A stretch of 64,000 nucleotides of DNA from an uncultured bacterium (lineage in GTDB: Bacteria; Omnitrophota; Omnitrophia; Omnitrophales; Abzuiibacteriaceae), in the NCBI GenBank assembly GCA_964387845.1, contig CAYLXA010000002.1:128001-192000 (forward strand), written 5' to 3'. Below the pieces are notes generated by a model. It saw only the letters and a list, made by a program, of their open reading frames with translations. It ran no database searches and was not told the origin of the DNA. Positions within the stretch are counted from its first letter, which is position 1; each line of letters begins with the position of its first letter. The translations under genes and the position numbers were made by a program. This document shows, piece after piece, positions 1 through 17,890 of the stretch.

Positions 1-222
1 TCAGAAATCTCCAAGTCTTTGTCCAATGCTCAAACTGAGATTTTGGGCCCGGCGCCGCTGCCGTTCTATAGGTTAAGAGGCCATTTTCGCTGGCATCTAA
101 TGATAAAAGTCAAAAACCAGACCGAGCATCCGCTGCTCGCAATTCGCCAGGCGATTCAATCAGCTAAAAAAGTCAGCAAAGTCTTTATGGCGGTTGATAC
201 GGACCCGGTCTCCATTCTCTAG
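1..222 (+). CDS. priA: Primosomal protein N' (PriA), C-terminal fragment; the gene starts upstream of the window
   Basis: Open frame from position 1 in the same frame as the listed ORF at 19. C-terminal '...LPFYRLRGHFRWHLMIKV...' resembles the PriA C-terminal domain. Confidence 0.6.
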   Translation, partial: SEISKSLSNAQTEILGPAPLPFYRLRGHFRWHLMIKVKNQTEHPLLAIRQAIQSAKKVSKVFMAVDTDPVSIL

Positions 223-274
223 AGCTATTTTCACATCTTTTCCGCTTTTCTGAATCGTGCTAAAATATGCCGCT

Positions 275-763
275 ATGGCGATTCTAAAAGTGCTGACATA
301 TCCCGATCCGATCCTCAAAAAGAAGGCAGAGCCTGTTCAAACAATCGGCCCCATAGAGAAAAAACTCATCCGCGACATGATCGAGACCATGTATACCGAT
401 GACGGAGTCGGCCTTGCAGCGCCGCAGGTCGGTGTATCGAAACGCATTTTTGTAGCCAGCCCGCACGCAAAGCCCGGAGAAGAAATGGTTTTCATTAATC
501 TTGAGATTCTAGAATCCTCCGGAACTCAAACCGGGCCGGAAGGGTGCTTGAGTCTTCCCGGCGTATCCGGACAAGTTCAGCGCGCCAGGAAAATTAAATA
601 CAAAATGATGACTGAGGACGGCAAATGGGTCGAGGGTGAAGCCGCTGATTTCTTGGCACGAGTTATTCAGCATGAATTAGACCATTTGGACGGAAAATTA
701 CTGATTGATCGCGTTGATTTTACGCAGCGCCAGGAAATCCTCAGCGAGTACCAGCTCATATAA
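275..763 (+). CDS. def: Peptide deformylase
   Basis: Motifs GLAAPQVG, EGCLS and HELDHL. ATG at 275 gives MAILKVLTYPDPIL, a typical def N-terminus. The ORF track's 257 is a GTG extension. Confidence 0.9.
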   Translation: MAILKVLTYPDPILKKKAEPVQTIGPIEKKLIRDMIETMYTDDGVGLAAPQVGVSKRIFVASPHAKPGEEMVFINLEILESSGTQTGPEGCLSLPGVSGQVQRARKIKYKMMTEDGKWVEGEAADFLARVIQHELDHLDGKLLIDRVDFTQRQEILSEYQLI

Positions 764-770
764 ATACCCG

Positions 771-1706
771 ATGAAACTTGTTTTTTTTGGCTCTTCCGAT
801 TTTTCCATTTCTGTATTAAACGTGCTCACGGACTCTGATCATCAAGTCGTGTGCATCGTCACAACGCCGCCCCGCAAAAAAGGCAGGGGACAAAAAGAAT
901 CTCCGACGGTCGTGCAAAGCTGGGCCGAAAATAAATCAATTCCCGTTTTAGCGCCTGAAAAAATTAATACGCCGGAATTTGTCGAAAAAATAAAATCCTT
1001 ACAACCGGATTGTTTGGTAGTGGCTTCGTATGGAAAAATGATTCCTGATGCGGTGTTAAAAATCCCCGCACAGCAGCCGCTGAATGTACACCCCTCCTTG
1101 CTTCCAAGGTATCGAGGTGCAGCGCCCATCGCGCGGCAGCTTTTAAACGGAGAAGCGATCAGCGGCGTCACAATTGCACGCATCACATCAAAATTGGATG
1201 CCGGTGAAATCATTGCCCAGCAGCAAGTTAAGATTCTGCCGGATGATAATGGTATTTCGCTCGCCCTTCGGCTGGCAAAATTGGGCGGAGATCTAGCGCT
1301 TAAAGTACTTGGTGAAATTGCCAAAAATAAAATCAAACTTACACCCCAAGATGAATCAAACTCCAGTTATGCCGAGAAGCTCAGGCCTGAAGAGGGGCGA
1401 ATTGATTGGAGCCAATCGGCTGATCAAATAAATCGGCAAGTACAGGCCTTGGTTCCGTGGCCATGCGCTTACGCATTTTTCAATAAAATCCGCATCAAGG
1501 TCCTGGAGGCCGGCGTGGGGCAAAAAATCTCGGAAGATTTACAACCTGGAAGCATTGTTAAAATTGACCCGAAAGGTACCCTTGCCATTCAAACGGGATC
1601 GGGAATCTTAAATCTTAAGACAATTCATCCGGAATCAGGAAAAGCAATGAATGCTTATCAATTCGCGCTCGGGCGGCATCTGAAAGCGGGCGATCTTTTC
1701 TTATGA
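771..1706 (+). CDS. fmt: Methionyl-tRNA formyltransferase
   Basis: MKLVFFGSSDFS... N-terminus and formyltransferase core (NVHPSLLPRYRGAAPI). Classic def-fmt pair. The ORF-track start at 705 is a TTG extension overlapping def; ATG 771 follows the def stop. Confidence 0.9.
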   Translation: MKLVFFGSSDFSISVLNVLTDSDHQVVCIVTTPPRKKGRGQKESPTVVQSWAENKSIPVLAPEKINTPEFVEKIKSLQPDCLVVASYGKMIPDAVLKIPAQQPLNVHPSLLPRYRGAAPIARQLLNGEAISGVTIARITSKLDAGEIIAQQQVKILPDDNGISLALRLAKLGGDLALKVLGEIAKNKIKLTPQDESNSSYAEKLRPEEGRIDWSQSADQINRQVQALVPWPCAYAFFNKIRIKVLEAGVGQKISEDLQPGSIVKIDPKGTLAIQTGSGILNLKTIHPESGKAMNAYQFALGRHLKAGDLFL

Positions 1707-2860
1707 ACAAAACAAAAATACTACATCTAACGACCCATTTGAATATTGGCGGTATCACAACCTATATTTATTTATTGGGCAAGGGACTTGACTCGGCTCA
1801 TTATGAGACCTCTGTTTTTTCAAGCGGCGGTGAAATGGAAAAACAATTCAACAAGTCCGGAATTCGTACTTACGCGTCACCATTCAGAACCAAGAGCGAA
1901 TTAAGCCCGAAGCTTTATTTCGCCATTCCGGAAGTAATTCGCATTATTAAAAACGAAAATATTAATTTATTGCATGCACACACCCGCGTTACGCAAGTCA
2001 TGGCGTGGTGGATCCAGAAAATCACCGGGATTCCTTATGTCTCAACCTGTCATGGTTTCTATAAAAGACGGCTAGGCAGGCGTTTGCTGCCGGCTTGGGG
2101 CAATAAAGTAATCGCGATTAGCCCGCCGGTGGCTGACTCTCTGGTAAACGAATTTAAGGTTCCTGCTGAAAAAGTTAAAACCATTTTGAATGCTATCGAT
2201 ATTGATACTTTAGAGGATTTGGTTCGACAAAAAAATCAGTCAAGCATTACCATCGAATATGATTTGCAATCCACAAAACCTATTTTGGGAATAGTGGCTC
2301 GGATTGTAAAAGATAAGGGGCATGAATATTTGCTTAAGGCCTTCGCGCAGCTGCTGCCTCAATATCCGGACTTGAAATTATTGGTGGTTGGAACCGGCAG
2401 TTATTTGTCCGACGTTAAAAAGCTGGCTGATCAGTTAAGCCTCACTAAAAATTTAACATTTGTGGGCAATCTTAATGATGTTACGAAAGCGCTGGCAGTG
2501 ATTGATATTTTTATATTACCCGCTGTCTGGCGCGAGGGTTTTGGCTTGTCGATTGTCGAGGCGATGGCATTAAAGAAACCAGTTATTGCAACCAATATCT
2601 GGGCTCTCAATTCATTGGTCCAAAACAAAGTGAACGGACTTTTGATTCAACCCAAAAACGTTACAGAGCTGGCTAGTGCGATTACGGAGCTGATTGAAAA
2701 TCAAGACCTGAGAAGAGCGGTAGGTGAAAAAGCTTACAAAACCGTGCAGGAACAATTCTCAATCAAGCGAATGACACGGGATTTCGATCGCCTATATCAA
2801 CAAATACTGCAATCTGACAGCAGATTAGCCGGCAAGAAATCTTCAGCGATGGCGCGTTGA
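1703..2860 (+). CDS. Glycosyltransferase family 4 (GT1-fold) protein
   Basis: N-terminal GT4 region (HLNIGGITTY) and C-terminal GT1 domain with the EGFGLSIVEAMA motif. Overlaps the fmt stop (ATGA). Confidence 0.8.
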   Translation: MNKTKILHLTTHLNIGGITTYIYLLGKGLDSAHYETSVFSSGGEMEKQFNKSGIRTYASPFRTKSELSPKLYFAIPEVIRIIKNENINLLHAHTRVTQVMAWWIQKITGIPYVSTCHGFYKRRLGRRLLPAWGNKVIAISPPVADSLVNEFKVPAEKVKTILNAIDIDTLEDLVRQKNQSSITIEYDLQSTKPILGIVARIVKDKGHEYLLKAFAQLLPQYPDLKLLVVGTGSYLSDVKKLADQLSLTKNLTFVGNLNDVTKALAVIDIFILPAVWREGFGLSIVEAMALKKPVIATNIWALNSLVQNKVNGLLIQPKNVTELASAITELIENQDLRRAVGEKAYKTVQEQFSIKRMTRDFDRLYQQILQSDSRLAGKKSSAMAR

Positions 2861-2884
2861 CAGTCTTTTCAGTATCTGTATAAT
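2857..2884 (+). promoter_or_regulatory. Near-consensus sigma-70 promoter upstream of gap (TTGACA-N16-TATAAT)
   Basis: TTGACA at 2857-2862 and TATAAT at 2879-2884, read directly. An AGGAGG Shine-Dalgarno site sits at 2930-2935 before ATG 2944. Confidence 0.6.
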
Positions 2885-2931
2885 ACCGAGATTGCGTCTT
2901 TTTAAAATGTTTAGTCATTTAGTGTCATTAG

Positions 2932-4047
<1,116 letters not shown>

Positions 4048-4084
4048 CCCGGACTACTTTTCTTAAATTCCTAAAGGTGGGGAA

Positions 4085-4381
4085 ATGCTGAAGTTCCGCC
4101 TTCAAGTAATGAGCCTGAAAAGAATCTTGTTTGACGCTGACGTCGAACAAGTTCATATTTTCGGCGATGAGGGCGAGTACGATCTTTTGGCCTATCACTA
4201 CCCTATTATTGGCGCCTTGCCGGAAGGCGAGGTCCACATCAAAGACCACAAAAACATCCCGCTTCGGGCAGGTGTGGCGCTTTTTCGTCAGAACCGCTGC
4301 CTGATTATTATCGAAGAAAAGGATGCGGAAGGCGCACCAACCGACAAGCCTTCCATCAACCCAATAGGCAAGAAAGACTAG
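4085..4381 (+). CDS. F-type ATPase epsilon-subunit-like protein (AtpC N-terminal beta-sandwich domain only), not next to atpD
   Basis: By-eye alignment to AtpC: L.VVS.E..F.G.VE...V.G.EGE.GI...H.PL...L.PG...I..... Good SD (AGGTGG) precedes it. The stop overlaps the cdaA start (TAGATG). Confidence 0.5.
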   Translation: MLKFRLQVMSLKRILFDADVEQVHIFGDEGEYDLLAYHYPIIGALPEGEVHIKDHKNIPLRAGVALFRQNRCLIIIEEKDAEGAPTDKPSINPIGKKD

Positions 4382-5143
4382 ATGTGGCTTTCAGCGTTTG
4401 CTTTTATTGTTTCCATCGTTTTTCTGATCCGCAGTCTTGAAATAATTCCCGGCGGCCAGCCGCTTTTAAATGCATTGGTGTGCCTATTTTCACTGTTAGC
4501 AGCCCTCTTCTTTCTTCCTGGCGAGTTGATTAGTTCGGCAATTTTAGAGGGTTTCGGGTGGTTTGTTGCAATCTTTGCCGGCAGTCTTGTTTTGATTGAA
4601 TTTGTTCAATTGATTTTTAAAAGACTTTTGCGGTGGGGATCGCTCCGATTGCAAACCACGGCCGGTCTTTCTCCGGAACATGACGAAATTTGCAAAGCGC
4701 TTGATCACATGGCAAAGCAGAAAACCGGCGCCCTTATCGTCCTTGAACGTAAAGGATCATTGAAGCATTTGTATGAAAATGGGTTTCAATTCGATAGTGA
4801 TGTTCGAGCTGAAGTCATCATCTCGCTTTTCGACAAAAATTCGCCGTTGCATGACGGCGCAATGATTATCAGCCAAAACCGGATCAAAGCATTAAAAATC
4901 ATCCTTCCATTAACTACGCGTTCTGATGTACCGCTCGGGATCGGGACCCGCCACCGTTCGGCAATCGGCCTGACTGAGACAACGGATGCCATTGCGCTTA
5001 TCTCATCGGAAGAGCGGGGCATGCTAAGCATTTCTTACCAAGGCGCTTTGGTAGTAGCCAACTCTAAAAACCAGTTCGCAGAACTCTTAAAACGAGCACT
5101 GAAGGGCTTTCCGATCATTGAGCCTGTGCAAGAGTCTGACTAA
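4382..5143 (+). CDS. cdaA: Diadenylate cyclase CdaA (c-di-AMP synthase), membrane-anchored
   Basis: Three N-terminal TM helices, then a DAC domain with DGAMII and GTRHRSAIGLTE motifs and ...ISSEERGMLSI. Confidence 0.85.
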   Translation: MWLSAFAFIVSIVFLIRSLEIIPGGQPLLNALVCLFSLLAALFFLPGELISSAILEGFGWFVAIFAGSLVLIEFVQLIFKRLLRWGSLRLQTTAGLSPEHDEICKALDHMAKQKTGALIVLERKGSLKHLYENGFQFDSDVRAEVIISLFDKNSPLHDGAMIISQNRIKALKIILPLTTRSDVPLGIGTRHRSAIGLTETTDAIALISSEERGMLSISYQGALVVANSKNQFAELLKRALKGFPIIEPVQESD

Positions 5144-5158
5144 TTTTGTCATATTTTC

Positions 5159-5186
5159 TTGATTTTCCGCTAAACTCGCGTATAAT
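5159..5186 (+). promoter_or_regulatory. Sigma-70-like promoter (TTGATT-N16-TATAAT) driving a short transcription unit
   Basis: TTGATT at 5159-5164 and TATAAT at 5181-5186, read directly. A strong terminator follows at 5396-5427. Confidence 0.5.
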
Positions 5187-5209
5187 TACATTACTTTTTG
5201 GAAAACTCG

Positions 5210-5359
5210 ATGGAAAACACTCTGAACCTAAAACACTTTAAAAGCAGTGTAAAACCCGCGACAGGCGCCGTGTCGATGGCGTGGTCTATTATGGGCCACG
5301 GCTATTGTCATCGCCGCAAGCTCGTGGGCTTGAAGGAGGTTCAAGCGTTACTATCGTAA
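5210..5359 (+). CDS. Candidate 49-aa small ORF (MENTLNLKHFKSSVKPATGAVSMAWSIMGHGYCHRRKLVGLKEVQALLS) inside the promoter-terminator unit; a non-coding RNA is an alternative
   Basis: The ATG lies ~20 nt after the -10 element with only a weak RBS. It is below the ORF-track length cutoff and was translated by hand. Confidence 0.25.
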   Translation: MENTLNLKHFKSSVKPATGAVSMAWSIMGHGYCHRRKLVGLKEVQALLS

Positions 5360-5395
5360 AGTAGTTTAAAGTAGTAAAAGCAAAATCAACTTAAG

Positions 5396-5427
5396 CCCAT
5401 GGCTGAAATTCAGTCATGGGTTTTTTT
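5396..5427 (+). terminator. Rho-independent terminator
   Basis: cccatggctgaa / ttcagtcatggg stem of ~11 bp with one G-U pair, followed by a TTTTTTT run. Confidence 0.7.
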
Positions 5428-5445
5428 ATTTTCAGGAGGTTTCAG

Positions 5446-5661
5446 ATGAGACAGACAGCAAAGCTGGTCCCAAAAGCCGGCTTCTTTACGGTCAACAAGG
5501 ACCCGGTAAAATTGACGGCCCTTTTATACCTGCGGGAAGCGCTTTTGGCGGAGCAGTATGAAGAGTGCGCCGAATTTGTGCGGATCGCGGAAGAATTCGG
5601 TGCGCACGGGTTTGAAATCCAGAATTTACTGGAAGACCCGAGGCGCATGCCGAAGGCGTGA
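5446..5661 (+). CDS. Small hypothetical protein with a UVR-like motif
   Basis: AGGAGG SD at 5434-5439 then ATG 5446. The LREALLAEQYEECAEFVRIAEEFG stretch resembles the UvrB/UvrC (UVR) interaction motif. The ORF-track start at 5416 lies inside the terminator T-run. Confidence 0.5.
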   Translation: MRQTAKLVPKAGFFTVNKDPVKLTALLYLREALLAEQYEECAEFVRIAEEFGAHGFEIQNLLEDPRRMPKA

Positions 5662-5846
5662 TTTTGGTGCCGGTGTTATGACTTTAACTAATCGCAACTT
5701 GAGATTCCTTGTTCGCCATTGGTTTTTGAAGGGGACGGGTGTGTTCGGGTTTTGTAAAATAGCGCTAGTGTTTATCGGAAGTGAACTATATAATCAAAAA
5801 CAGAAATTATTTTTTACCATTTATTCTATTGACTGCACGATGCCGT

Positions 5847-6221
5847 ATGAATCAAAAAATCGCTCTTTTCCTTTTATTGTCTGTGATTACAAGCTGTTCT
5901 GGAGGGCATGTTCTCGCTAAATGGGCGGTCGTTCAAGCGGAAGACACGTTTGCAAAAGCGTCCGATATGCGCCATGATAAGAACAAGCACGCTGGGCGCA
6001 TCCGCCTTTACGAACGTGCCTGCGCGCAGTTTGTTAAGGCTTATGAATTAGATCCGGGCGTATTTACGCTTTACCGCATTGAAAACGCAATCACCGCCTG
6101 TGCGTGGGCAGAAAACTATGCCGCAAAAGAAATCATGCAGAATTTTGAATTTGATTACATTGATCAACATCCGACCGAAGCCGAATACGGCGATGCCATG
6201 CCGCCCATAAGTTTTGAGTAA
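5847..6221 (+). CDS. Hypothetical lipoprotein
   Basis: MNQKIALFLLLSVITSC signal peptide with a lipobox (ITSC). The ORF-track start at 5781 is upstream of the signal peptide. Confidence 0.55.
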   Translation: MNQKIALFLLLSVITSCSGGHVLAKWAVVQAEDTFAKASDMRHDKNKHAGRIRLYERACAQFVKAYELDPGVFTLYRIENAITACAWAENYAAKEIMQNFEFDYIDQHPTEAEYGDAMPPISFE

Positions 6222-6223
6222 TT

Positions 6224-6916
6224 ATGCCGCCAACGACTCAGAAAAACTTCAAATTATCACCCTCAACGCTAAATTTATTTCTAGACTGTCCAAGGTGTTT
6301 TTGGCTCGAGAAAGTGAAGGGGATCAAGCGGCCGCGCGGCATTTTTCCGTCGCTTCCGGGCGGCATGGACCGCGAAATCAAAAATCATTTTGATATTTTC
6401 CGCGCAAAAAAGAAACTCCCGCCGGAATTGTCATCACCGGTTTTTACGGGCATAAACCTTTTTGATGCTCAAAAACAGCTCGACTTGTGGCGCAATTGGC
6501 GCACCGGTTTGGAATATCATGACGAAGGCGGTAATGTGTTGAGCGGTGCGCTCGATGATCTGCTCGTCCAAGGCGATCTCTACATTCCGTTTGATTACAA
6601 AACGAAAGGCTCGCCGACGACCGAAGAAGATGCGGTCAAATATTATCAAAATCAATTAGACTGTTACACGCTCATGCTGGAAGCCAATGGAATGAAAAGT
6701 GCCGGATTCGGAATTCTTTTGTATTATTCGCCAAAATTAGTTTCAGAAAACGGAAGTGTTGCATTTCAAACACAACCGATTAAAATAGAAACAAAGTCGG
6801 AGCGCGCCAAATCAACCTTTGCGCGCGCCCTTAATTTAGTGAAAGGTCCAATCCCTTCGGTTAATTTTAATTGCGAGTACTGCACCTGGAACAACAAGCT
6901 GCGTGCCGCCAACTGA
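6224..6916 (+). CDS. PD-(D/E)xK nuclease, Cas4/DUF83-like, with a predicted Cys4 Fe-S cluster
   Basis: N-terminal LSPSTLNLFLDCPRCFW (Cas4-like CxxC), a D...D-Y-K catalytic triad (DDLLV...IPFDYKTKG), a QhxxY motif (YYQNQLDCY), and a C-terminal CEYC. Confidence 0.65.
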   Translation: MPPTTQKNFKLSPSTLNLFLDCPRCFWLEKVKGIKRPRGIFPSLPGGMDREIKNHFDIFRAKKKLPPELSSPVFTGINLFDAQKQLDLWRNWRTGLEYHDEGGNVLSGALDDLLVQGDLYIPFDYKTKGSPTTEEDAVKYYQNQLDCYTLMLEANGMKSAGFGILLYYSPKLVSENGSVAFQTQPIKIETKSERAKSTFARALNLVKGPIPSVNFNCEYCTWNNKLRAAN

Positions 6917-6929
6917 GTAAAGGTGTTTT

Positions 6930-7742
6930 ATGAAACCCAATTTTGTTCCGTTTATTATTGCATTCATTGTCATCACATTTATCGCTTCGGGCTGCTCGGT
7001 CAAAGTGATCGAGGACGGCGAAGCGGGCGTCAAGGCAACTCTCGGAAAAATCGAAGACAAGCCACTGGGGCCGGGGTGGTACATTTTCTTTCCGATTGTT
7101 TCTTGGATTGAAAAATGGAACGTAAAAACACAAGAAATAAAAGAAACCGCCAGCGTTCCTTCATCGGAAGGCCTCATTTCCACGCTGGACGTTTCGGTGC
7201 TTTACAATACATCGATTGATAAGGTCGTGTCTGTCCGCACAACAACAGGCTACAATTATAAAGAAATCATCTTGGAGCCCTTTGTCCGCGAGTCAATCCG
7301 CAATGTCGTGAGCGGCTATGAAGTGAAAGCGCTTTTTAGCGAAAAAAGCAGGAAGGAAATCGGAGAAAAAATTCTTCAGTTTCTGAGAGAAAAATTAGAA
7401 AGCCGCGGCATCACGGTCCAGGACGTTCTGTTGCGTGATGTGCGCCTGCCGCAAGCGTTTAGCCAAAGCATCGAAATCAAGCTCAAAACCGAGCAAGAGG
7501 CCCTTCAAAAGGAATTTGAGCTGCAAAAAGCCAAGAAAGACGCTGAAATTGAAGTTGCGCGCGCAGAAGGCGTTGCCAAAAGCAACCGAATCATTGCCGA
7601 CAGCATCAATGAAAACTATCTTCGGTATAAATGGATTCAAGGCCTTCAAAACACGAGCTCTCAAGTGGTTTATGTGCCGACCGAAGCAAACCTTCCGATT
7701 TTAGAGGCAAATCGGTGGAAAGCCGCGGCTGAAAAGAAATAA
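6930..7742 (+). CDS. SPFH/Band-7 (prohibitin/HflK-like) domain lipoprotein
   Basis: Signal peptide with a lipobox (IASGCS), then an SPFH-type core and a coiled-coil EAxQ-rich C-terminus. Confidence 0.7.
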   Translation: MKPNFVPFIIAFIVITFIASGCSVKVIEDGEAGVKATLGKIEDKPLGPGWYIFFPIVSWIEKWNVKTQEIKETASVPSSEGLISTLDVSVLYNTSIDKVVSVRTTTGYNYKEIILEPFVRESIRNVVSGYEVKALFSEKSRKEIGEKILQFLREKLESRGITVQDVLLRDVRLPQAFSQSIEIKLKTEQEALQKEFELQKAKKDAEIEVARAEGVAKSNRIIADSINENYLRYKWIQGLQNTSSQVVYVPTEANLPILEANRWKAAAEKK

Positions 7743-7747
7743 TATCA

Positions 7748-8302
7748 ATGAACAAAAAAGCTTTGGTGATACTGGCAAATGGTTGCGAAGAAATCGAAGC
7801 CGTTACTCCGATCGACGTCCTGCGCCGTGCAGGCGTTGAAGTAACGGTTGCAGGCCTGGATAGCAAGGTCATTACGGGCGCTCAAGGTATTAAATTCGAG
7901 ACAGATTTATTGTTGAAAGATTACAAAGTAACGCCGGATGCCATTATTTTACCCGGCGGTGCCCAGGGTGCGCGGAATTTAAGCCAATCCAAAGAAGTTT
8001 TGGAAGTCGTAAAATACTTGCACGATCAAAAGCGGCTCGTGGCTGCCATTTGCGCGTCTCCGGCTGTTGCATTATCGCCGACTGGGATTTTGGCAAACCG
8101 CCAGGCCACTTGCTATCCCGGCTTCGAGAAGGAATTCCCGAGAAATGTTATTTTTAAAGAAGACCGCGTCGTGATTGATCAAAATATCATTACGAGCCGC
8201 GGCCCCGGATCAGCGCTTGAGTTTGCACTTAAAATTGTCGAAGAATTGGTATCCAAAGAAAAGGCGCAGACACTCAGGGAAGGGATGCTTGTGAAGGTAT
8301 GA
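7748..8302 (+). CDS. DJ-1/PfpI family protein (ThiJ/YajL-like)
   Basis: Typical length of 184 aa. Nucleophile-elbow motif AAICASP and the GGxxGA pattern. Confidence 0.8.
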   Translation: MNKKALVILANGCEEIEAVTPIDVLRRAGVEVTVAGLDSKVITGAQGIKFETDLLLKDYKVTPDAIILPGGAQGARNLSQSKEVLEVVKYLHDQKRLVAAICASPAVALSPTGILANRQATCYPGFEKEFPRNVIFKEDRVVIDQNIITSRGPGSALEFALKIVEELVSKEKAQTLREGMLVKV

Positions 8303-8421
8303 TTACCGAGAGCAAATGTCCGGCCTGCAATTCGGAGTTGGTGATAAAAAAAGCAAAATTCATCTGCTCGGTCTGTCATTTAATTGTTGAAACTTGCTGC
8401 GACGGCGGAAAGTGTGATTAA
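8299..8421 (+). CDS. Candidate 40-aa zinc-ribbon protein (CPAC...CSVC...CC..GGKC)
   Basis: Translated by hand: MITESKCPACNSELVIKKAKFICSVCHLIVETCCDGGKCD. The ATG overlaps the DJ-1 stop (ATGA) and its TAA overlaps the next ATG (TAATG). Below the ORF-track cutoff. Confidence 0.4.
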   Translation: MITESKCPACNSELVIKKAKFICSVCHLIVETCCDGGKCD

Positions 8422-8690
8422 TGGCTAAATTTTTTGACCGGCACTTCAAAACAGCGCTTGTGGTCCTTGCCGCGGTTTTTCTGTGGATTTATTACGTAAG
8501 CAGCCAAAACGGGCGTTATCAGGTAGAGCGCTACGATACGGATATTCATATTTTTGACACTCAGCGCGGCATTTACTATAAAACCACTTCCAGCGGTTCT
8601 GTTGATGTCATCGATCCGATCGGCGGGTCTGTTAAGTTCAAAAAACTTCCCTTTATGATTAAAGAGCGGAAATTCATTGCCCGCGAATAG
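8421..8690 (+). CDS. Hypothetical single-pass membrane protein
   Basis: N-terminal TM helix (ALVVLAAVFLWIYYV); no recognisable domain. Translationally coupled to the upstream gene. Confidence 0.5.
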   Translation: MAKFFDRHFKTALVVLAAVFLWIYYVSSQNGRYQVERYDTDIHIFDTQRGIYYKTTSSGSVDVIDPIGGSVKFKKLPFMIKERKFIARE

Positions 8691-8746
8691 TTTGATAAAC
8701 CCCCTGGAAAGCCCTCTTTTTATCTGACCCAAATCCTCCGAACGGC

Positions 8747-8775
8747 TTGTAACTTCGCGCAGTCAGCGCTATAAT
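8747..8775 (+). promoter_or_regulatory. Sigma-70-like promoter upstream of glgB (TTGTAA-N17-TATAAT)
   Basis: TTGTAA at 8747-8752 and TATAAT at 8770-8775, read directly. ~40 nt leader to ATG 8816. Confidence 0.5.
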
Positions 8776-8815
8776 AAAAGCCTTTTCCTAACTATAATCA
8801 AGAGAGGGACTTGGG

Positions 8816-11062
8816 ATGGCAGTAAAAAAATCACTGCAAAAAACCTCGCACCTGTCCAACGAACGCGATAAACGCATCGAACTCATCGCGCGATTCGAAG
8901 ACGATCAACCGGCGCTTACTTTAGGAGCCCATCTTTTATCCGATCCCGATAAAAGAATCATTATCAGCGCTTATTTGCCGCGCGCTGCCGAAGCTTGGGT
9001 AAAACCGCTCAACGGCAAACAAAAAAAGCAGCCGATGAAAAAAATTCATCCCTCCGGGCTGTTTCAAACCGTTTATACCGATGAAAAGAGCTTGTTTCCG
9101 TATCGTTTCGAATCCGTTGATGATTCCGGTTATCGCACGGAATTTGATGATCCGTATGTCTATTCAACCGATATTACGGACTATGATCTGCATTTGATGG
9201 GTGAGGGAAACCATTTCAAAAGCTATGAAAAGTTGGGCGCAAGAGTCAAAACATTCAACGGAGTAAGCGGCGTTCATTTTTCCGTCTGGGCACCGAATGC
9301 CAAAAGCGTTAGCGTTATCGGCAACTTTAATCATTGGCAGCCGGGCGTGCACCCGATGAATCGACTGCAATCCAGCGGTGTCTGGGCATTATTTATTCCC
9401 GGGCTTAAATCCGGAGAAGTCTATAAATATGCGATTAAATCCTGGGTGGATGGTAAAATTCGGGAAAAATCAGACCCCTACGCATTTCAAACCGAACTCA
9501 GGCCGCGCTCGGCTTCAGTGGTCCCCTCAACAATTCCATACAACTGGCACGACTCCGGCTGGCTTAAAGAACGTGCGCAAACCGATATTTTCCGCAAGCC
9601 AATCGCAATTTACGAAGTGCATCTGGGCTCTTGGAAACGTGACGAAAAGAAAAATTGTGGGTTTCTGAATTACAGAGAGCTGGCGCACCAGTTGGTGGAA
9701 TATGTGAAGTGGATGGGATATACCCATATCGAATTATTGCCGATCGCGGAACATCCGCTCGATGAATCGTGGGGCTATCAGGTCATTAATTATTTTGCAC
9801 CGACCAGCCGGTTCGGAACGCCGGATGATTTTCGTTACTTTATTGATCATTGCCATCAAAACCAAATCGGCATCATTTTAGATTGGGTACCCGCACATTT
9901 TCCGAAAGATGATCATGGGCTTGCCGATTTCGACGGAAAACAAATTTACGCATATGAAAATTGGAAAAAGGGCGAACACAAAGAATGGGGAACTTACGTT
10001 TTTGACTACGGGCGCAACGAAGTCCGGAACTTTTTAATCTCGAACGCTCTTTTCTGGCTCAGCGAGTATCACATTGACGGGCTCCGGATTGATGCGGTTG
10101 CTTCAATGCTTTACTTGGATTATTCGCGCGCAGAAGGAGAATGGGAACCAAATGAGCACGGCGGCAGGGACAATCCCGAGGCGGTACAATTCCTCAAGCA
10201 ATTAAATGAAGTGGTGCATTCAAATTATCCCGGCGTTTTGACCATCGCCGAAGAATCAACCGCGTGGCCCGCAGTTTCCAGGCCGACCTATATGAATGGC
10301 CTTGGCTTCAGCATGAAATGGAACATGGGTTGGATGCACGACATGCTGGACTACTTTTCAAAAGAACCGGTTCACCGGAAATTCCATCAAAACATGCTTA
10401 CATTTTCAATGCTCTATGCATTCACAGAAAATTTTATCCTTCCGATTTCGCATGATGAGGTTGTGTATGGAAAGCGTTCTCTTTTTGAAAAAATGCCTGG
10501 CGATGACTGGCAGAAATTTGCAAATACACGGCTCTTTTTGGCTTACATGTACGCACATCCGGGTAAAAAACTGCTGTTTATGAGCAGTGATTTTGGCCAG
10601 CGATCTGAATGGGATGCGTCGCGATCTATTGACTGGCACTTCATGGACTACGAACCGCACAGACGGCTGAGCCAGTGCGTGCGTGATTTAAATCAAATTT
10701 ACAAAAACCACCGGGCGCTCTACGAAGTTGATTTTGACTGGCCCGGTTTCGAGTGGATCGATTTTTCAGATGCTGATACCAGTTTGATTAGTTTTGCGCG
10801 ATGGTCGCTGGATAAAAAGCAACTCGTCATTTGCGCATTTAATATGACACCCGTGCCGCGCATGCAATACCGAGTCGGGGTTCCGCGAGATGGATACTAT
10901 CAGGAAATTTTTAACAGTGATGCAAAAGAATACGGCGGCAGCGGAATTGGTAATTGCGGCGGGTTTCATTCCGAGAGCATCCCGTGGCACGGCCAGTCAC
11001 ACTCGCTTCATTTAAATCTACCGCCTTTAGGCGCCGTTATATTTTGCTTAAACCAAACGTAA
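8816..11062 (+). CDS. glgB: 1,4-alpha-glucan branching enzyme (GH13)
   Basis: GH13 catalytic signatures (GLRIDAVASMLY, region with EESTAWP, HDEVV). 748 aa with an N-terminal extension. Confidence 0.9.
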   Translation: MAVKKSLQKTSHLSNERDKRIELIARFEDDQPALTLGAHLLSDPDKRIIISAYLPRAAEAWVKPLNGKQKKQPMKKIHPSGLFQTVYTDEKSLFPYRFESVDDSGYRTEFDDPYVYSTDITDYDLHLMGEGNHFKSYEKLGARVKTFNGVSGVHFSVWAPNAKSVSVIGNFNHWQPGVHPMNRLQSSGVWALFIPGLKSGEVYKYAIKSWVDGKIREKSDPYAFQTELRPRSASVVPSTIPYNWHDSGWLKERAQTDIFRKPIAIYEVHLGSWKRDEKKNCGFLNYRELAHQLVEYVKWMGYTHIELLPIAEHPLDESWGYQVINYFAPTSRFGTPDDFRYFIDHCHQNQIGIILDWVPAHFPKDDHGLADFDGKQIYAYENWKKGEHKEWGTYVFDYGRNEVRNFLISNALFWLSEYHIDGLRIDAVASMLYLDYSRAEGEWEPNEHGGRDNPEAVQFLKQLNEVVHSNYPGVLTIAEESTAWPAVSRPTYMNGLGFSMKWNMGWMHDMLDYFSKEPVHRKFHQNMLTFSMLYAFTENFILPISHDEVVYGKRSLFEKMPGDDWQKFANTRLFLAYMYAHPGKKLLFMSSDFGQRSEWDASRSIDWHFMDYEPHRRLSQCVRDLNQIYKNHRALYEVDFDWPGFEWIDFSDADTSLISFARWSLDKKQLVICAFNMTPVPRMQYRVGVPRDGYYQEIFNSDAKEYGGSGIGNCGGFHSESIPWHGQSHSLHLNLPPLGAVIFCLNQT

Positions 11063-11077
11063 ATTGAGCGGAGCCGT

Positions 11078-13573
11078 ATGTCAAAAAATGTTTTTATTGC
11101 AGTTCATGGACATTTTTACCAACCGCCGCGGGAAAACCCTTGGCTGGAAGAGATCGAGGCGCAGGATACGGCAGCTCCGTTTCATGATTGGAATGAGCGG
11201 ATTTATCATGAGTGCTATTTGCCCAATGCTACTGCGCGCGTTCTGGATGAGCATGGGAAAATCATCGATATCGTAAACAATTACGAATCGATCAGCTTTA
11301 ATTTTGGCCCGACACTCCTGACTTGGCTCCAGCACAAACATCCTGAAATTTATCAAAGAATAATTGAAGCCGACAAAAAGAGCTTGTCAGCCCAAAACGG
11401 CCATGGCAATGCAATTGCGCAAGCCTATAGCCACCTCATTATGCCGCTCGCTAATACAAGGGATAAAGAAACGCAGGTGCGGTGGGGGATTGAAGAATTC
11501 AAATTCCGGTTTAATCGAGCGCCAGAATCTATGTGGCTTCCGGAAACGGCCTGCAATGAGCAAACGCTTGAGGTTTTGGTTGCTCACGGCATCCGGTTTA
11601 TCATCCTAGAACCCAATCAAGCAGAAGCTGTCCGGCCGCTGGGCCATCATGATTGGCAGGATGTTTCATCCGGTACAATTGACCCGAAACACCCATACCG
11701 GTGTTTTCTAAAGAATAATCCTCACCAATTCATCGATATTTTCTTTTATGATGGCCCGATCTCAAAAGATATTGGTTTTGCAAATTTGGCTTTTGATGCA
11801 AAAATTTTTGTAGATCGCTTGATCCACTCGATCGATCACCACAACACTCAAAACCAAATTATTCATACGGCAACGGATGGTGAAACTTACGGTCATCACA
11901 AGGCATTTGGTGAGCGGGCGCTGGCGTATTTATTGCAAAGGGAAATTCACAATCATAACATTCAGCTCACCAATTACGGCGAATACCTGTCCAAAAATCT
12001 GCCGCAACACGAAGTGAAGTTAAAAGAAGGAATTAACGGGCTCGGTACCAGCTGGAGCTGTGCGCATGGCGTGGGCCGTTGGATGGAAAATTGCGGATGC
12101 CGCGGCGGCGGGCCCGCGTCTTGGACGCAGCATTGGCGCAAACCGCTTCGGGAAGCGTTGGACTGGCTGCGCGATGAACTGTCAAAAGTTTATGAAGAGT
12201 TTGGCGGTAAATATTTGAAGAATCCCTGGGAAGCGCGCAATCAATATATCCGCGTCGTGCTCGACCGCAGCGATCAAAATGTCAAAAATTTCTTATCGGA
12301 GCAGGCGCATTCGCTTAATGATATCCCGGCCTGCTTGAAACTGCTTGAGATGCAGCGCCATGCAATGCAGATGTATACCAGTTGCGGCTGGTTTTTTACG
12401 GAACTTTCCGGAATTGAAACCGTTCAAATCATGCAATATGCAGCGCGAGCCATTCAGCTTGCCCGCGAATTGACCGGAAAATCTCTCGAGGAAGAATTTG
12501 TGGAACGGCTTTTCCATGCCAAAAGCAACGTAGCGGAATTTAAAGACGGACGGGGTGTTTATGAAAAACTAATCCGGCCGAAAGAGATCACGCTAAATCA
12601 TATTGCGGCTTATTACGCAATCACGTCGCTTTTTGACGACGACGAGACGCACCGCGATGAAGTCGACCTTTATTGCTTCAAGCTTAAAATTCATCATTAT
12701 CACAGCGAATCGTTCGGTAATTTAAAACTGACCTACGGCCGCGCTTCAGTCAAATCTCAACTGACCTGGGAAGAAAAAGATCTGGCCTTTACCGTTTTGC
12801 AGTTTGGGCTTTACGATTTCCGGTGTTGCGTCAAAGATTTCACCGAAGAACAAAAATTCGAATCGGAAGGGAGGGTCCTGTCAGAGGCCCTCCATTCACT
12901 TGATTTGGTGGGATTGCTCCGGAAAATCGATTCCTTTTTCGGCGATGTTAATTTTTCGCTCCGCGATTTGCCTTATCCCGAGCGGCACAAAATCGTTTCA
13001 ACGCTGTCTAAAGAGGCCATCGAAAAAATCAGCGCTGCTTACGAAACGCTTTATGCAGAAAACAGTAAAATGAATAAAATTTACCGAGACATCAACTTGC
13101 CGATTCCGGCCGAGATACGCTTTGCCGTTCAGCACACACTCGGGAAGCAGTTGGAATTACAGCTTAAGAAATTATCCGCTGCCGGTTTTCAGGCTAAAAA
13201 AGCCCAAAGCGTTTCACGCACCATCGAAACAGCAAGATCTCTGGGCGTTGAAATTAAAACGGAAGCGATCACGCACATGCTCAGCCACGAACTCGCTCAG
13301 AAAGCGCGGCTATTGGCGGTTGAAATGAAGGCTGAGTTTATCTCCGAATGCCTTTATATTTTGCGGATTGCGAAAAAATTGGGCACAGAATTGGAAATCC
13401 GGGAGGCGCAGGATTATTTGTTTAATTTCCTCCAAAAATCAAAACAAGGCGTCAATGCTGCGGCTGAAATCATTAATAACCCGGCGAATCATCTCGCTCA
13501 ATTGGTGACCAATTTAAACATGCATCCTCATTTAATTCCGAAGTCAGCCTCAAAACAGGAGCAGGCGTGTTGA
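11078..13573 (+). CDS. Glycoside hydrolase family 57 protein (alpha-amylase / glucanotransferase / branching type) with a ~300-aa C-terminal extension
   Basis: GH57 N-terminus HGHFYQPPRENPW, a catalytic core with conserved E/D residues (ATDGETYGHHK), 831 aa. Confidence 0.8.
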   Translation: MSKNVFIAVHGHFYQPPRENPWLEEIEAQDTAAPFHDWNERIYHECYLPNATARVLDEHGKIIDIVNNYESISFNFGPTLLTWLQHKHPEIYQRIIEADKKSLSAQNGHGNAIAQAYSHLIMPLANTRDKETQVRWGIEEFKFRFNRAPESMWLPETACNEQTLEVLVAHGIRFIILEPNQAEAVRPLGHHDWQDVSSGTIDPKHPYRCFLKNNPHQFIDIFFYDGPISKDIGFANLAFDAKIFVDRLIHSIDHHNTQNQIIHTATDGETYGHHKAFGERALAYLLQREIHNHNIQLTNYGEYLSKNLPQHEVKLKEGINGLGTSWSCAHGVGRWMENCGCRGGGPASWTQHWRKPLREALDWLRDELSKVYEEFGGKYLKNPWEARNQYIRVVLDRSDQNVKNFLSEQAHSLNDIPACLKLLEMQRHAMQMYTSCGWFFTELSGIETVQIMQYAARAIQLARELTGKSLEEEFVERLFHAKSNVAEFKDGRGVYEKLIRPKEITLNHIAAYYAITSLFDDDETHRDEVDLYCFKLKIHHYHSESFGNLKLTYGRASVKSQLTWEEKDLAFTVLQFGLYDFRCCVKDFTEEQKFESEGRVLSEALHSLDLVGLLRKIDSFFGDVNFSLRDLPYPERHKIVSTLSKEAIEKISAAYETLYAENSKMNKIYRDINLPIPAEIRFAVQHTLGKQLELQLKKLSAAGFQAKKAQSVSRTIETARSLGVEIKTEAITHMLSHELAQKARLLAVEMKAEFISECLYILRIAKKLGTELEIREAQDYLFNFLQKSKQGVNAAAEIINNPANHLAQLVTNLNMHPHLIPKSASKQEQAC

Positions 13574-15435
13574 TCGACTCTGAATCAAACAAACTCGGAG
13601 CCGGGCATGCCGATGAGCGTTACGCTTACTTTTTGTCGGCTCCCAGCGCCGAACATTGGAAACGCATCGGCCTGCGCCGGCGCGGTGGAATTTTGGCGCC
13701 TCTTTTTTCGATTTATTCTGAAAGCAGTATCGGAATCGGGGAATTTCCGGATCTTCGACTGCTGGCAGACTGGTGCAGAGACACGGGTCTTTCCATCATC
13801 CAGTTATTACCGCTCAACGATGTCGGATTTACTTTCCGTCCTTACGATGCCGACAGCACCTTCGCAATTGATCCGATGTATTTATCGCTTGATCGCTTAG
13901 TCGGAGTTGACCCAAGGCCCCTTCGGATGCGGTCGGCGGTTCTGCGTGCGCGCTATCCTCGCAATCATTCGAGAGTCGATTATGGAATCAAGCGTGCTAA
14001 ACTGGATTTTTTATGGGAAGCTTTCGCCAAATCCGAGCACAAACAAAATTCCAGATTTCTCGAGTTTGTGCGCCAAAACGCTTATTGGCTCAGCGATTAC
14101 GCCATGTTCCGCGTTCTAAAAACTCTCCACAAAGAAAAATCCTGGGAAGCTTGGCCTGAAAAATTCAAAAGCCGAAACAAATCGGCCCTGCGAGAAGCAG
14201 AGAACGAACACAGAGAGAAAATTGAATTTCACAAGTGGGTTCAGTGGCAGGTTTTTGAACAATTTCGCGGAGCCAAAAACGATTTAGCGCAAAGAAATAT
14301 TTTGCTGATGGGTGATTTGCCTTTCTTGGTTTCGCGCGATAGTGCCGATGTGTGGTCTCATCCGAATTTATTTAAACTCGACCGCCTGGCCGGCGCGCCT
14401 CCCGATCTTTACTTTGCGTTGGGGCAGCGCTGGGGAATGCCGCCTTACAATTGGGAGAATATTGAAAGCGAAAATTTTTCTTATTTAATTGAACGGCTTC
14501 GCTACGCGGAAAATTTTTATGACTGCTTCCGTATTGATCATTTTGTCGGGCTTTTCCGAATCTGGACAATCGCAGCTGATGAACCACTTGAAAACGGCGG
14601 TTTAAACGGCGCATTTGATCCGCCGGAAGAAACGAAGTGGGAAGAACACGGAAGACGCATTTTGTCGGTCATAACTCGGAATACAAAAATGCTCCCGTGC
14701 GCCGAAGACCTCGGCGTTGTGCCGCCGTGTTCGTTTAAAGTCCTTGAAGAGTTCGGCCTGCCCGGTATGGACATCCAGCGCTGGATGCGCGACTGGGGAA
14801 AAACGTACGAATTTTTGAATGCCGAACGTTACCGGAAAAATTCCTTGTCTACCATTTCGACGCACGATATGTCTATCTTCGCTGCCTGGTGGCAATTTGA
14901 GGCCGGAACCGTCGACGAGGAGCTGTATCGGCGCGCTTTAAAAAAGGCCGGGCTTGATTTCGAAAAACTCAAAAATCACTTATTTGATATCAAGCATTCG
15001 ATGCACAAAAAATTACGGTGGAAAAAAGACATCAAAACTGTTTCAAAGTATCTTCAGATATTGCAAATTCCCGAAACTGCGGCCGGAGAGTTAATTTATT
15101 TGTTTGTGTCATCGTTTGATGAAAAGGAAAAAGCGCTCAGGTTTTTTGATTTTGAGAACGGAGCAAAATCGCCGGAAGTCCGCGAGCTCCTGAAAACCGC
15201 GATCCGTAAAAATTTGGAAACCGATTCCATTTTCAATATCCAATTAATCCAGGATTGGCTGTGCCTTTCGGAAAATTGCTTCGCCGACGCTTGGAATGCA
15301 CGGGTTAATTTTCCGGGTATAATGAGCGACCAAAATTGGTCAATCGTGATGCCGATATCGCTGGAAGAAATGCGGCAGCTGGAAATCAATCCTTTCATCA
15401 AGTCTATGGCCGAGGCTTCTTACCGCACAGAATAA
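13567..15435 (+). CDS. malQ: 4-alpha-glucanotransferase (amylomaltase, GH77)
   Basis: GH77 signatures (RGGILAPLFSI..., GDLPF, IDHFVGLFRIW). GTG start overlaps the GH57 stop; SD caggag 7 nt upstream. Confidence 0.85.
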   Translation: MLIDSESNKLGAGHADERYAYFLSAPSAEHWKRIGLRRRGGILAPLFSIYSESSIGIGEFPDLRLLADWCRDTGLSIIQLLPLNDVGFTFRPYDADSTFAIDPMYLSLDRLVGVDPRPLRMRSAVLRARYPRNHSRVDYGIKRAKLDFLWEAFAKSEHKQNSRFLEFVRQNAYWLSDYAMFRVLKTLHKEKSWEAWPEKFKSRNKSALREAENEHREKIEFHKWVQWQVFEQFRGAKNDLAQRNILLMGDLPFLVSRDSADVWSHPNLFKLDRLAGAPPDLYFALGQRWGMPPYNWENIESENFSYLIERLRYAENFYDCFRIDHFVGLFRIWTIAADEPLENGGLNGAFDPPEETKWEEHGRRILSVITRNTKMLPCAEDLGVVPPCSFKVLEEFGLPGMDIQRWMRDWGKTYEFLNAERYRKNSLSTISTHDMSIFAAWWQFEAGTVDEELYRRALKKAGLDFEKLKNHLFDIKHSMHKKLRWKKDIKTVSKYLQILQIPETAAGELIYLFVSSFDEKEKALRFFDFENGAKSPEVRELLKTAIRKNLETDSIFNIQLIQDWLCLSENCFADAWNARVNFPGIMSDQNWSIVMPISLEEMRQLEINPFIKSMAEASYRTE

Positions 15436-15438
15436 CCG

Positions 15439-15467
15439 TTTGACAAGTCGTCGGAATCTCCTAAAAT
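15439..15467 (+). promoter_or_regulatory. Sigma-70-like promoter upstream of pgk (TTGACA-N17-TAAAAT)
   Basis: TTGACA at 15439-15444 and TAAAAT at 15462-15467, read directly. Confidence 0.5.
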
Positions 15468-15497
15468 ACAGTTTTCGCTACCCATCCGGAACAGATT

Positions 15498-16691: not shown

Positions 16692-16692
16692 T

Positions 16693-17867: not shown

Positions 17868-17890
17868 ACCAGCATTGACTGGTTTTTGAG
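17866..17890 (+). terminator. Weak hairpin plus T-run after secG (possible partial terminator)
   Basis: aaccag-cattga-ctggtt then ttttt: 6-bp stem, short U-tract. Confidence 0.3.

Follow-up and report, generated by a model that had tools for sequence, protein, structure and literature searches.

Six genes of a Candidatus Omnitrophota bacterium follow one another on one strand almost without spacing, which raises the question of whether they constitute a dedicated multi-gene system. The first-pass annotation, made from the sequence alone, described them as a lipoprotein, a Cas4-like Fe-S nuclease, an SPFH protein, a DJ-1/PfpI protein, a zinc-ribbon micro-protein and a membrane protein, and tentatively read them as one envelope-associated nucleic-acid-processing or stress/defence module. 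We analyzed these genes within the window, i.e., the whole 64-kb stretch of DNA examined here. The identities of the genes and the presence of an intact, stand-alone nuclease stood up to this analysis; the module did not. With a probability of about 0.75, the locus is no dedicated multi-gene system but a series of genes without functional relation to each other, which share an orientation and probably a transcript within a compact genome.

Layout of the six-gene run

The six ORFs were recovered with exactly the coordinates and gaps (2, 13, 5, -4 and -1 nt) first given for them (Table 1). Their tight packing does not exceed the background of the window, since the median same-strand gap across the 64 kb is also 5 nt (with 36 of 58 gaps no longer than 15 nt) and 57 of the 62 genes lie on the + strand. 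Both spacing and orientation are the norm in this genome, and short intergenic gaps carry no information on functional linkage here. Co-transcription of the six genes is plausible judging from the sequence, and a consensus scan found no strong internal terminator within the run. The same type of scan returned two promoter-like sites by pattern match alone, at 5159-5186 and ahead of glgB, of which the latter likely marks the 3' boundary of the transcription unit. The whole window yielded zero Rfam matches at gathering thresholds. A structured region at 5193-5432 was also considered as an sRNA; this is disfavoured, since a 6-nt indel that keeps the frame and a bias towards third codon positions favour a 49-aa ORF.

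Table 1. Features of the six-gene run and its context (positions within the window)
Feature	Position	Strand	Remarks
Membrane diadenylate cyclase (CdaA-like), context gene	4382..5143	+	PF02457 8.7e-37
124-aa lipoprotein, lineage-specific	5847..6221	+	Signal peptide MNQKIALFLLLSVITS followed by Cys; no family match
230-aa stand-alone Cas4-like PD-(D/E)XK nuclease	6224..6916	+	PF12705 PDDEXK_1
270-aa SPFH/prohibitin-family protein	6930..7742	+	PF01145 5.9e-32; N-terminal anchor or possible lipobox (IASG followed by Cys)
184-aa DJ-1/YajL-type protein (glyoxalase III/deglycase family)	7748..8302	+	TIGR01383, PF01965
40-aa CxxC...CxxC zinc-ribbon micro-protein	8299..8421	+	Start overlaps DJ-1 stop codon by 4 nt
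89-aa membrane-anchored orphan	8421..8690	+	N-terminal TM helix, then small five-strand beta domain
Promoter-like site TTGTAA-17-TATAAT	8747..8775	+	Ahead of glgB; 10/12 consensus matches, pattern match only

A conserved stand-alone Cas4-like nuclease

The nuclease matches PF12705 above the Pfam gathering threshold (49.8 bits, cutoff 22, E 5.6e-13), a domain carried by all of its listed homologues, and has a Cas4/RecB-like fold. The hallmarks for which it was first called Cas4-like are present and family-invariant. Its catalytic residues, namely D111, D124-Y-K126 and the Q144 and Y148 of a QxxxY motif, are intact on alignment, with D111, D124, K126, Q144 and Y148 invariant in the nuclease alignment and 98-100% conserved in 135 representatives, and the catalytic motif aligns to the D...ExK of Cas4 4r5q. 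Four cysteines, conserved at 93-96% in the same representatives, are arranged as C22xxC25 ... C217xxC220 and form a candidate metal site, in which C22 aligns with the N-terminal Cys of Cas4 and a third C-terminal Cys is absent. The Fe-S label attached to the protein was inferred, and this four-Cys site could bind Zn instead. No signal peptide is present in the sequence, so the enzyme would be cytoplasmic. Its stand-alone status was borne out: no spaced, CRISPR-like direct repeats occur in the 64-kb window, and no cas genes were found among the called neighbours in any nuclease locus examined.

The protein resembles the solo-Cas4/PF12705 nucleases (Hudaiberdiev et al. 2017, PMC5704561; M. mazei Solo-Cas4, PMC12501428) in being a single domain of ~225 aa encoded outside CRISPR-cas loci, in its PD-(D/E)XK core with QxxxY motif, and in four conserved Cys that tie the two ends of the chain together in the manner of the 'iron staple'. 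Solo-Cas4 genes are described as inherited vertically, subject to ordinary purifying selection and overrepresented in environmental bacteria with small genomes (PMC5704561); the present family likewise shows strong purifying selection and a distribution that largely follows lineage among such bacteria. Unlike Cas4 proper, the window nuclease falls below the cutoffs of PF01930 (DUF83; 14.7 vs 22.7) and TIGR00372 (26.9 vs 65), and it also differs by an invariant basic loop, KRPRGIFPSLPGGMDR, for which no alignable Cas4 counterpart was found. The canonical Cas4 cysteine pattern of the Cas4/AddB literature is C...CxxCx5C (1+3), whereas that of the window nuclease is CxxC...CxxC (2+2). In contrast to the nuclease domains of AdnAB/AddAB, Dna2, Exo5 and MGME1, it is fused to no helicase or other domain; a Pfam scan of longer family members (276-475 aa) detected nothing besides PF12705, and no conserved helicase neighbour was found among the 80 species-level loci clustered below.

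More than 1800 homologues were identified, the best 120 of which are 63-80% identical, and the family comprises 331 clusters at 50% identity (E<1e-30). Its members occur in Omnitrophota, Elusimicrobia, Planctomycetia, Aerophobetes, Auribacterota and some phages. Nine IMG/VR contigs carry homologues, next to exonuclease, helicase and RecE-like genes; a tblastn search of GenBank phages gave zero matches, and a search of plasmids gave a single one (29%, Flagellatimonas). In sum, the protein is a Cas4-like DNA nuclease that stands alone, is strongly conserved and arranges its Cys in an unusual 2+2 pattern.

The partner proteins

The domain calls made earlier for the partners were also upheld. The SPFH protein scores 111.6 bits against PF01145 (cutoff 23.6) and has a hydrophobic N-terminus, FVPFIIAFIVITFIASGC, as a membrane anchor. 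The DJ-1 protein scores 195 bits against the TIGR01383 equivalog model (cutoff 131.25) and 162 bits against PF01965 (1.3e-47), with its nucleophile Cys in the elbow motif AAICASP. Compared with known bacterial prohibitin/HflC-type SPFH proteins and DJ-1/YajL glyoxalase-deglycases, both pass curated thresholds and show nothing unusual apart from their chance adjacency in the window.

The lipoprotein has zero matches in Pfam, NCBIfam, PADLOC and PHROGs. Its signal peptide and lipobox Cys are kept in four lineages (the window, L008, L104 and L029), its substitutions show third-position bias (32/22/71 at codon positions 1/2/3), and it lies immediately upstream of the nuclease in L008, L104 and L029 alike, an adjacency still seen at L029, where the lipoprotein is 39% identical, and one that counts against the reading of unrelated genes. 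When 75 loci were searched by regex for small lipoproteins of any kind ahead of the nuclease, no common theme emerged.

Both small ORFs are genuinely coding, as indicated by their substitutions relative to the sister genome at codon positions 1/2/3 (3/3/22 for the zinc-ribbon protein and 11/4/45 for the 89-aa protein), which makes the longer ORF on the opposite strand at 8418-8732 spurious. The 40-aa protein has the CxxC...CxxC motif and weak, sub-threshold zinc-ribbon matches in searches of Pfam, NCBIfam, PADLOC and PHROGs; it is 88% identical in L008 and 58% in L103. The 89-aa protein has zero matches in these four collections and six homologues in total among 5.8 billion proteins, one of which (64% identical) lies in an unrelated AI-2E/HTH/AsmA context. 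Its AF2 model is of low confidence (pLDDT 68, pTM 0.38), with a helix at 2-29 and five strands, and its fold search returned nothing significant (best E 0.6), so the protein is given no function.

Conservation of the gene neighbourhood

The neighbourhood survey covered 80 clustered species-level nuclease loci. The full set of six is confined to this genome (L001) and one close relative (L104/L105), with nucleases at least 80% identical, and subsets of the six are present at L008 and L103. No conserved six-gene module extends across divergent genomes, and the genes are largely conserved individually and not co-localised, which contradicts the initial view of them as one system. Apart from DJ-1, each partner was found near the nuclease in 0-1 of the 80 loci; across the survey, the nuclease has no general neighbour among its five partners. 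The sole recurrent block, CdaA-YbbR-PdxJ-carbohydrate kinase-radical SAM-nuclease-cupin-DUF6941-DJ-1-CYTH-EF-P, is found in about 20-25 related genomes, and the remaining nuclease loci share nothing. The CdaA-like gene of the window is the upstream end of a residual diadenylate cyclase (DAC)...nuclease...DJ-1 synteny; in 19 of 45 loci, a DAC gene precedes the nuclease by no more than 7 kb.

Alternative explanations

The least improbable alternative is a two-gene functional pair of nuclease and DJ-1, possibly with cdaA signalling. The deglycase would undo or flag carbonyl (methylglyoxal) lesions in nucleotides or DNA, and processing of the damaged DNA ends would fall to the nuclease. DJ-1 follows the nuclease on its strand at a distance of 0.7-2.4 kb in the window, at L008, L103 and L105, and at 21 species-level loci, with varying genes in between (none, SPFH, or cupin plus DUF6941). 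Moreover, in the nuclease NJ tree, which is a single-protein tree with short deep branches and does not represent a species tree, unlinked lineages separate two linked clades. The order and strand of DAC, nuclease and DJ-1 are kept in both clades while every gene between them differs, and this could reflect selection for proximity instead of inertia. Against the pair, the 21 loci with DJ-1 within 3 kb downstream, out of 60 species-level loci with enough flank for this test, all belong to one syntenic clade of housekeeping genes; the other 39, including all members from Elusimicrobia, Planctomycetia, Aerophobetes and Auribacterota, have no DJ-1 nearby, and neither do the phage homologues examined. 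Because the entire 11-gene block is syntenic in the large clade, DJ-1 is linked to the nuclease no more than EF-P or PdxJ is. We thus regard the pair as unlikely, and a search of the literature on Omnitrophota together with the nuclease and DJ-1 returned nothing informative. Slightly less probable still is its stronger form, that the order kept in two clades represents a real coupling by which the 2+2 Cys nuclease and the DJ-1/YajL deglycase repair carbonyl-damaged DNA in small-genome Omnitrophota. If true, the nuclease family would be a new phylum-scale DNA-repair enzyme and not a generic solo Cas4.

In line with the first reading, the nuclease, DJ-1, the pair of lipoproteins and the small membrane proteins could make up an envelope-associated module for nucleic-acid processing or anti-phage defence; this appears very improbable. 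Three or four of the members are envelope proteins, the nuclease weakly matches PADLOC Cas4 models (1.7e-9), and a defensive role is possible for solo Cas4-family enzymes, as for ACE1 with pAgo (PMC12094033). However, the lipoprotein, SPFH, DJ-1, zinc-ribbon and 89-aa proteins have no match in PADLOC-DB 2.0, no system of which is matched by two or more members, and the combination is confined to this genome and its one close relative. The nuclease itself is predicted to be cytoplasmic, and its 63-80% identity across hundreds of taxa is unlike that of fast-evolving accessory defence genes. In addition, the run is flanked by core metabolism genes (GAPDH, cdaA and glgB), GC content is flat, and no tRNA was found in positions 1-20000 of the window.

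Protease-like partners are commonly paired with SPFH genes, and the DJ-1/PfpI-family gene starts 5 nt after SPFH both here and in L105. SPFH and DJ-1 might therefore pair as scaffold and protease at the membrane, much as in the widespread SPFH-NfeD operons, with the nuclease as an unrelated neighbour. This is likewise very improbable, given that the SPFH orthologues with 79% and 70% identity have unrelated surroundings and are followed by TauE/PFK or an opposite-strand VWA gene and not DJ-1, that DJ-1 predates the SPFH insertion at this locus (L008, L103), that the DJ-1 protein scores as a TIGR01383-type glyoxalase and below the PfpI/YhbO cutoff (82 vs 139 bits), and that no adjacency recurring in unrelated phyla is seen. 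SPFH homologues 65-89% identical are found across many Omnitrophota, but this genome and the close relative (L104/L105, nuclease 80%) are the only ones with SPFH placed between nuclease and DJ-1; the gene is missing at L008, a sister species with a 79% identical nuclease.

Functional interpretation

As a run of unrelated genes, the locus would combine several separate activities. We infer that the solo Cas4-like nuclease may trim or degrade DNA ends in repair or recombination, probably by metal-dependent hydrolysis through D111/D124/K126, with the four-Cys metal site bridging the N- and C-termini and stapling the fold. The DJ-1/YajL-type glyoxalase/deglycase would detoxify reactive carbonyls. 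Its proximity to the nuclease, with cdaA upstream, is probably residual ancestral synteny common to one large Omnitrophota clade, and the lipoprotein, the SPFH/prohibitin scaffold, the zinc-ribbon micro-protein and the 89-aa orphan are envelope proteins gained or lost at the genus level.

That these six genes stand together is an accident of gene order at the genus level and reflects no conserved system, so the six do not matter as a system. What this analysis delineates is a nuclease family that is Cas4-like, stand-alone, compact and strongly conserved, and whose CxxC...CxxC site permutes the canonical iron-staple ligands. This family is a candidate for asking what role solo Cas4-type enzymes play in small-genome uncultured bacteria.

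Gene content and coding evidence

Six ORFs on the + strand were recovered at exactly the coordinates proposed by the first-pass annotation, with the same intergenic distances (2, 13, 5, -4, and -1 nt). Profile searches against Pfam and NCBIfam upheld its domain calls for the nuclease (PF12705 PDDEXK_1, 49.8 bits, cutoff 22), the SPFH protein (PF01145, 111.6 bits), and the DJ-1 protein (PF01965, 162 bits; TIGR01383 'DJ-1 family glyoxalase III', 195 bits, cutoff 131). Neither the lipoprotein nor the 89-aa membrane protein matched any family in Pfam, NCBIfam, PADLOC, or PHROGs.

Features of the six-gene cluster and its surroundings (window coordinates)
Feature	Position	Strand	Evidence or remark
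Epsilon-like gene (98 aa) and cdaA	4085-5143		PF02823 (epsilon-like)
'Intergenic' stretch	5146-5445		272 nt, after cdaA
Promoter-like site	5159-5186		sigma70-like, conserved
49-aa ORF	5210-5359		MENTLNLKHFKSS...; in post-cdaA stretch
Terminator-like hairpin	5393-5423		strong
71-aa gene	5446-5661		strong AGGAGG ribosome-binding site; 23 nt past hairpin
Lipoprotein, 124 aa	5847-6221	+	ORF
Nuclease, 230 aa	6224-6916	+	ORF; PF12705
SPFH protein, 270 aa	6930-7742	+	ORF; PF01145
DJ-1 protein, 184 aa	7748-8302	+	ORF; PF01965, TIGR01383
CxxC…CxxC micro-protein (Zn-ribbon), 40 aa	8299-8421	+	ORF
Membrane protein, 89 aa	8421-8690	+	ORF
Antisense ORF, 104 aa	8418-8732	-	rejected
Promoter-like site	8747-8775		consensus scan
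Glycogen/alpha-glucan cluster	8816-15435		directly downstream
ORF, probably GH77	13567-15435		synteny with sister genome

Substitutions relative to the sister genome (L008, ~71% DNA identity) at codon positions 1/2/3 were 3/3/22 for the Zn-ribbon gene, 11/4/45 for the 89-aa gene, 32/22/71 for the lipoprotein gene, and 43/24/105 for the nuclease gene. This pattern shows that the Zn-ribbon and 89-aa micro-genes are genuine, and that the antisense ORF overlapping the latter, which a longest-ORF rule would pick, is an artefact. The lipobox Cys and signal peptide of the lipoprotein are kept in four lineages. The model of the 89-aa protein (pLDDT 68) begins at its N-terminus with a TM helix (2-29), continues with five short strands, and gave no significant fold match (best E 0.6); with only six homologues among 5.8 billion sequences, this protein remains a genus-level orphan. 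The lipoprotein, SPFH protein, and 89-aa protein are predicted envelope proteins. The nuclease has no signal peptide and is therefore cytoplasmic.

A solo Cas4-like nuclease with a 2+2 cysteine pattern

In an alignment of 22 nuclease homologues, C22, C25, D111, D112, D124, Y125, K126, Q144, Y148, C217, and C220 are invariant, and the loop K35-RPRGIFPSLPGGMDR-50 is likewise invariant at most of its positions. Among 135 family representatives just 35-58% identical to the query, conservation reaches 100% for D111 and K126, 99% for D124 and Y148, 98% for Q144, and 93-96% for the four Cys. The catalytic hallmarks recognized in the first-pass annotation are intact at 98-100%, which therefore excludes a loss of catalytic residues on alignment.

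The fold neighbours (scores in parentheses) are the Cas4 domain of a Cas4-Cas1 fusion (7mi4; 14.1), AdnA (12.4), Dna2 (11.9), type I-C Cas4 (11.8), MGME1 (11.5), SSO0001 (10.7), RecE (10.5), Exo5 (9.8), Pcal_0546 Cas4 (9.3), ACE1 (8.5), and AddB (8.1), all of them DNA-end or ssDNA-processing enzymes. By sequence, the protein falls outside Cas4 proper, scoring below the Cas4 cutoffs (PF01930, 14.7 bits vs 22.7; TIGR00372, 26.9 vs 65) and reaching a best E-value of 0.008 against PDB by phmmer. The canonical iron staple of Cas4, AddB, Dna2, and Exo5 has a 1+3 arrangement (C…CxxCx5C), whereas this family has 2+2 Cys, an N-terminal and a C-terminal CxxC. C22 aligns to the lone N-terminal Cys of Cas4, and a third C-terminal Cys is absent from the 22-homologue alignment. 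Given the 1+3 canon, the family would have relocated one metal ligand to the N-terminal knuckle; the candidate site may hold either an Fe-S cluster or Zn, so the first-pass label of an Fe-S nuclease is putative. Longer family members carry no extra Pfam domain.

The nuclease also matches phrog_31195 (function unknown; 2e-67), and nine IMG/VR contigs (L092-L100), five of them ~42-45 kb, encode homologues of 36-50% identity. In the five viral contigs examined, the homologue shares one strand and one block with genes for a RecE-like exonuclease and a large DNA helicase, as well as with 'exonuclease' PHROGs (298, 10477). This block is a replication/recombination module and, together with the fold neighbours, supports a role in DNA-end processing.

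More than 1800 homologues were found; the best 120 share 63-80% identity, and the named ones among these are Candidatus Omnitrophota. Searching 1.84 billion 50%-identity representatives with a profile gave 331 clusters (E<1e-30), almost all of them full length (215-250 aa). When one genome per GTDB species was scanned, the best 80 of 99 loci were mostly from Omnitrophota; the others (51-68% identity) belong to MAGs labelled Elusimicrobia/Endomicrobiales, Planctomycetia/Scalinduaceae, Auribacterota, Aerophobetes, and one Nitrospirota. Two MAGs, JACPCP01 (L044/L048) and CAZSFZ01 (L019/L031), have a copy on two contigs each, as paralogues or through bin contamination.

Solo-Cas4 genes are reported to show mostly vertical inheritance and ordinary purifying selection, to be enriched in small-genome environmental bacteria without CRISPR, and to include a PF12705 branch treated as not CRISPR-linked (PMC5704561); in one that has been characterised, a metal-dependent DNase, the Fe-S cluster plays a structural role (PMC12501428). 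The window nuclease fits this picture as a new member. The reported absence of a CRISPR array was borne out, as no CRISPR-like spaced repeats were detected in the window.

Packing and transcription signals

A crude gene call across the whole window gave 62 genes, 57/62 of them on the + strand, with ~96% of the sequence coding. Same-strand gaps have a median of 5 nt (≤15 nt in 36/58) and co-orientation is normal window-wide; both features are the genome default and uninformative on functional linkage. The 57 + strand genes are consecutive over ~59 kb (1-58900), and the strand switches at ~58.9 kb. In a consensus scan, flanking promoter-like sites and a strong terminator-like hairpin, with no strong terminator inside the cluster, make a single transcription unit across the six genes plausible. 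GC content is flat across the cluster (0.44-0.47), and no tRNA lies within 1-20000.

Upstream, the stand-alone ATP-synthase epsilon-like gene has a 0-nt gap to the membrane diadenylate cyclase gene cdaA (DAC). Its product consists of the N-terminal beta-sandwich alone (2e-10); the gene is far from any atp operon and, at 94% protein identity in the sister genome, is the best-conserved small gene of the region. With an MFE of -86.7 vs -58.1 kcal/mol (z = -7), the stretch after cdaA is predicted to fold far more stably than shuffles, and its 79% identity to the sister genome exceeds that of the flanking genes. An in-frame 6-nt indel and third-position bias (5/7/15) make a small protein gene the likelier reading of its 49-aa ORF; neither Rfam nor Pfam gave a match. 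The 71-aa gene (74% identity in relatives; substitutions 16/11/43, a coding-type bias) has no family match. Downstream, GlgB is followed by GH57 plus DUF3536, an order kept in close relatives; since GH77 (4-alpha-glucanotransferase) follows GH57 in the syntenic sister genome, the last ORF of this alpha-glucan cluster is probably GH77.

Neighbourhood conservation and origin of the cluster

An identical contig (L001; nuclease identity 100%) carries the same cluster. The order lipo-nuc-SPFH-DJ-1-[Zn-ribbon]-89aa-GlgB is found at L104/L105 (nuclease 80%, SPFH 89%), lipo-nuc-DJ-1-Zn-ribbon-89aa-GlgB, without SPFH, in the sister genome (79%), and nuc-DJ-1-91aa-Zn-ribbon-89aa-NUDIX at L103 (67%); L029 (66%) retains a lipoprotein of 39% identity directly upstream. 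Beyond close relatives, the set falls apart. An SPFH orthologue of 79% identity is flanked by a phytase-like gene and TauE/PFK/TerC, and one of 70% adjoins an opposite-strand VWA gene. At 64% identity, a homologue of the 89-aa protein has an AI-2E transporter gene on one side and HTH/AsmA genes on the other, and neither nuclease nor DJ-1 within 7 kb; it and the 79% SPFH orthologue come from separate contigs of one assembly, ERZ21828298. The SPFH protein itself has 1648 matches at E<1e-20 (top 120 at 65-89% identity, named 'prohibitin family').

Across the 80 species-level loci (tblastn, E≤1e-3), SPFH was found near the nuclease in one (28% identity, 3.4 kb upstream), the lipoprotein in one, and the Zn-ribbon and 89-aa proteins in none. 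DJ-1 lies ≤3 kb downstream in 21/60 loci with enough flank, and DAC ≤7 kb upstream in 19/45. When all ORFs within 5 kb were clustered de novo, every recurrent neighbour family fell into one syntenic block of ~20-25 related genomes (CdaA-YbbR-PdxJ-carbohydrate kinase-radical SAM-NUC-cupin-DUF6941-DJ-1-CYTH-EF-P). Outside it, no neighbour family is common to more than four remaining loci, and the genes immediately beside the nuclease are heterogeneous. None of the five partners matched a defence model (PADLOC).

The six genes had been read as an operon forming a speculative envelope-associated nucleic-acid processing or stress/defence module; as a six-gene functional module, the cluster is not supported and is instead a lineage-specific juxtaposition of genes, probably transcribed as one unit. 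The nuclease is a conserved solo Cas4-like enzyme and the DJ-1 protein a glyoxalase of the DJ-1 type; the prohibitin-type SPFH gene is a recent insertion, and the other three genes encode small lineage-specific proteins, of which the lipoprotein and the 89-aa membrane protein are predicted to be in the envelope. Synteny decay is the best explanation for the leftover nuc-DJ-1(-cdaA) proximity. In a neighbour-joining nuclease tree, the DJ-1/DAC-linked loci comprise the block clade and the window/L008 pair, with unlinked lineages between them and short deep branches; functional coupling as the cause of this proximity is quite improbable. On the simplest reading, synteny decay would have started from an ancestral order DAC…nuc…DJ-1; the window lineage would then have replaced all genes between these three and gained four small genes for envelope proteins. 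The sole mildly novel element is this variant of the iron-staple nucleases, with its 2+2 Cys, together with its spread in uncultured phyla.
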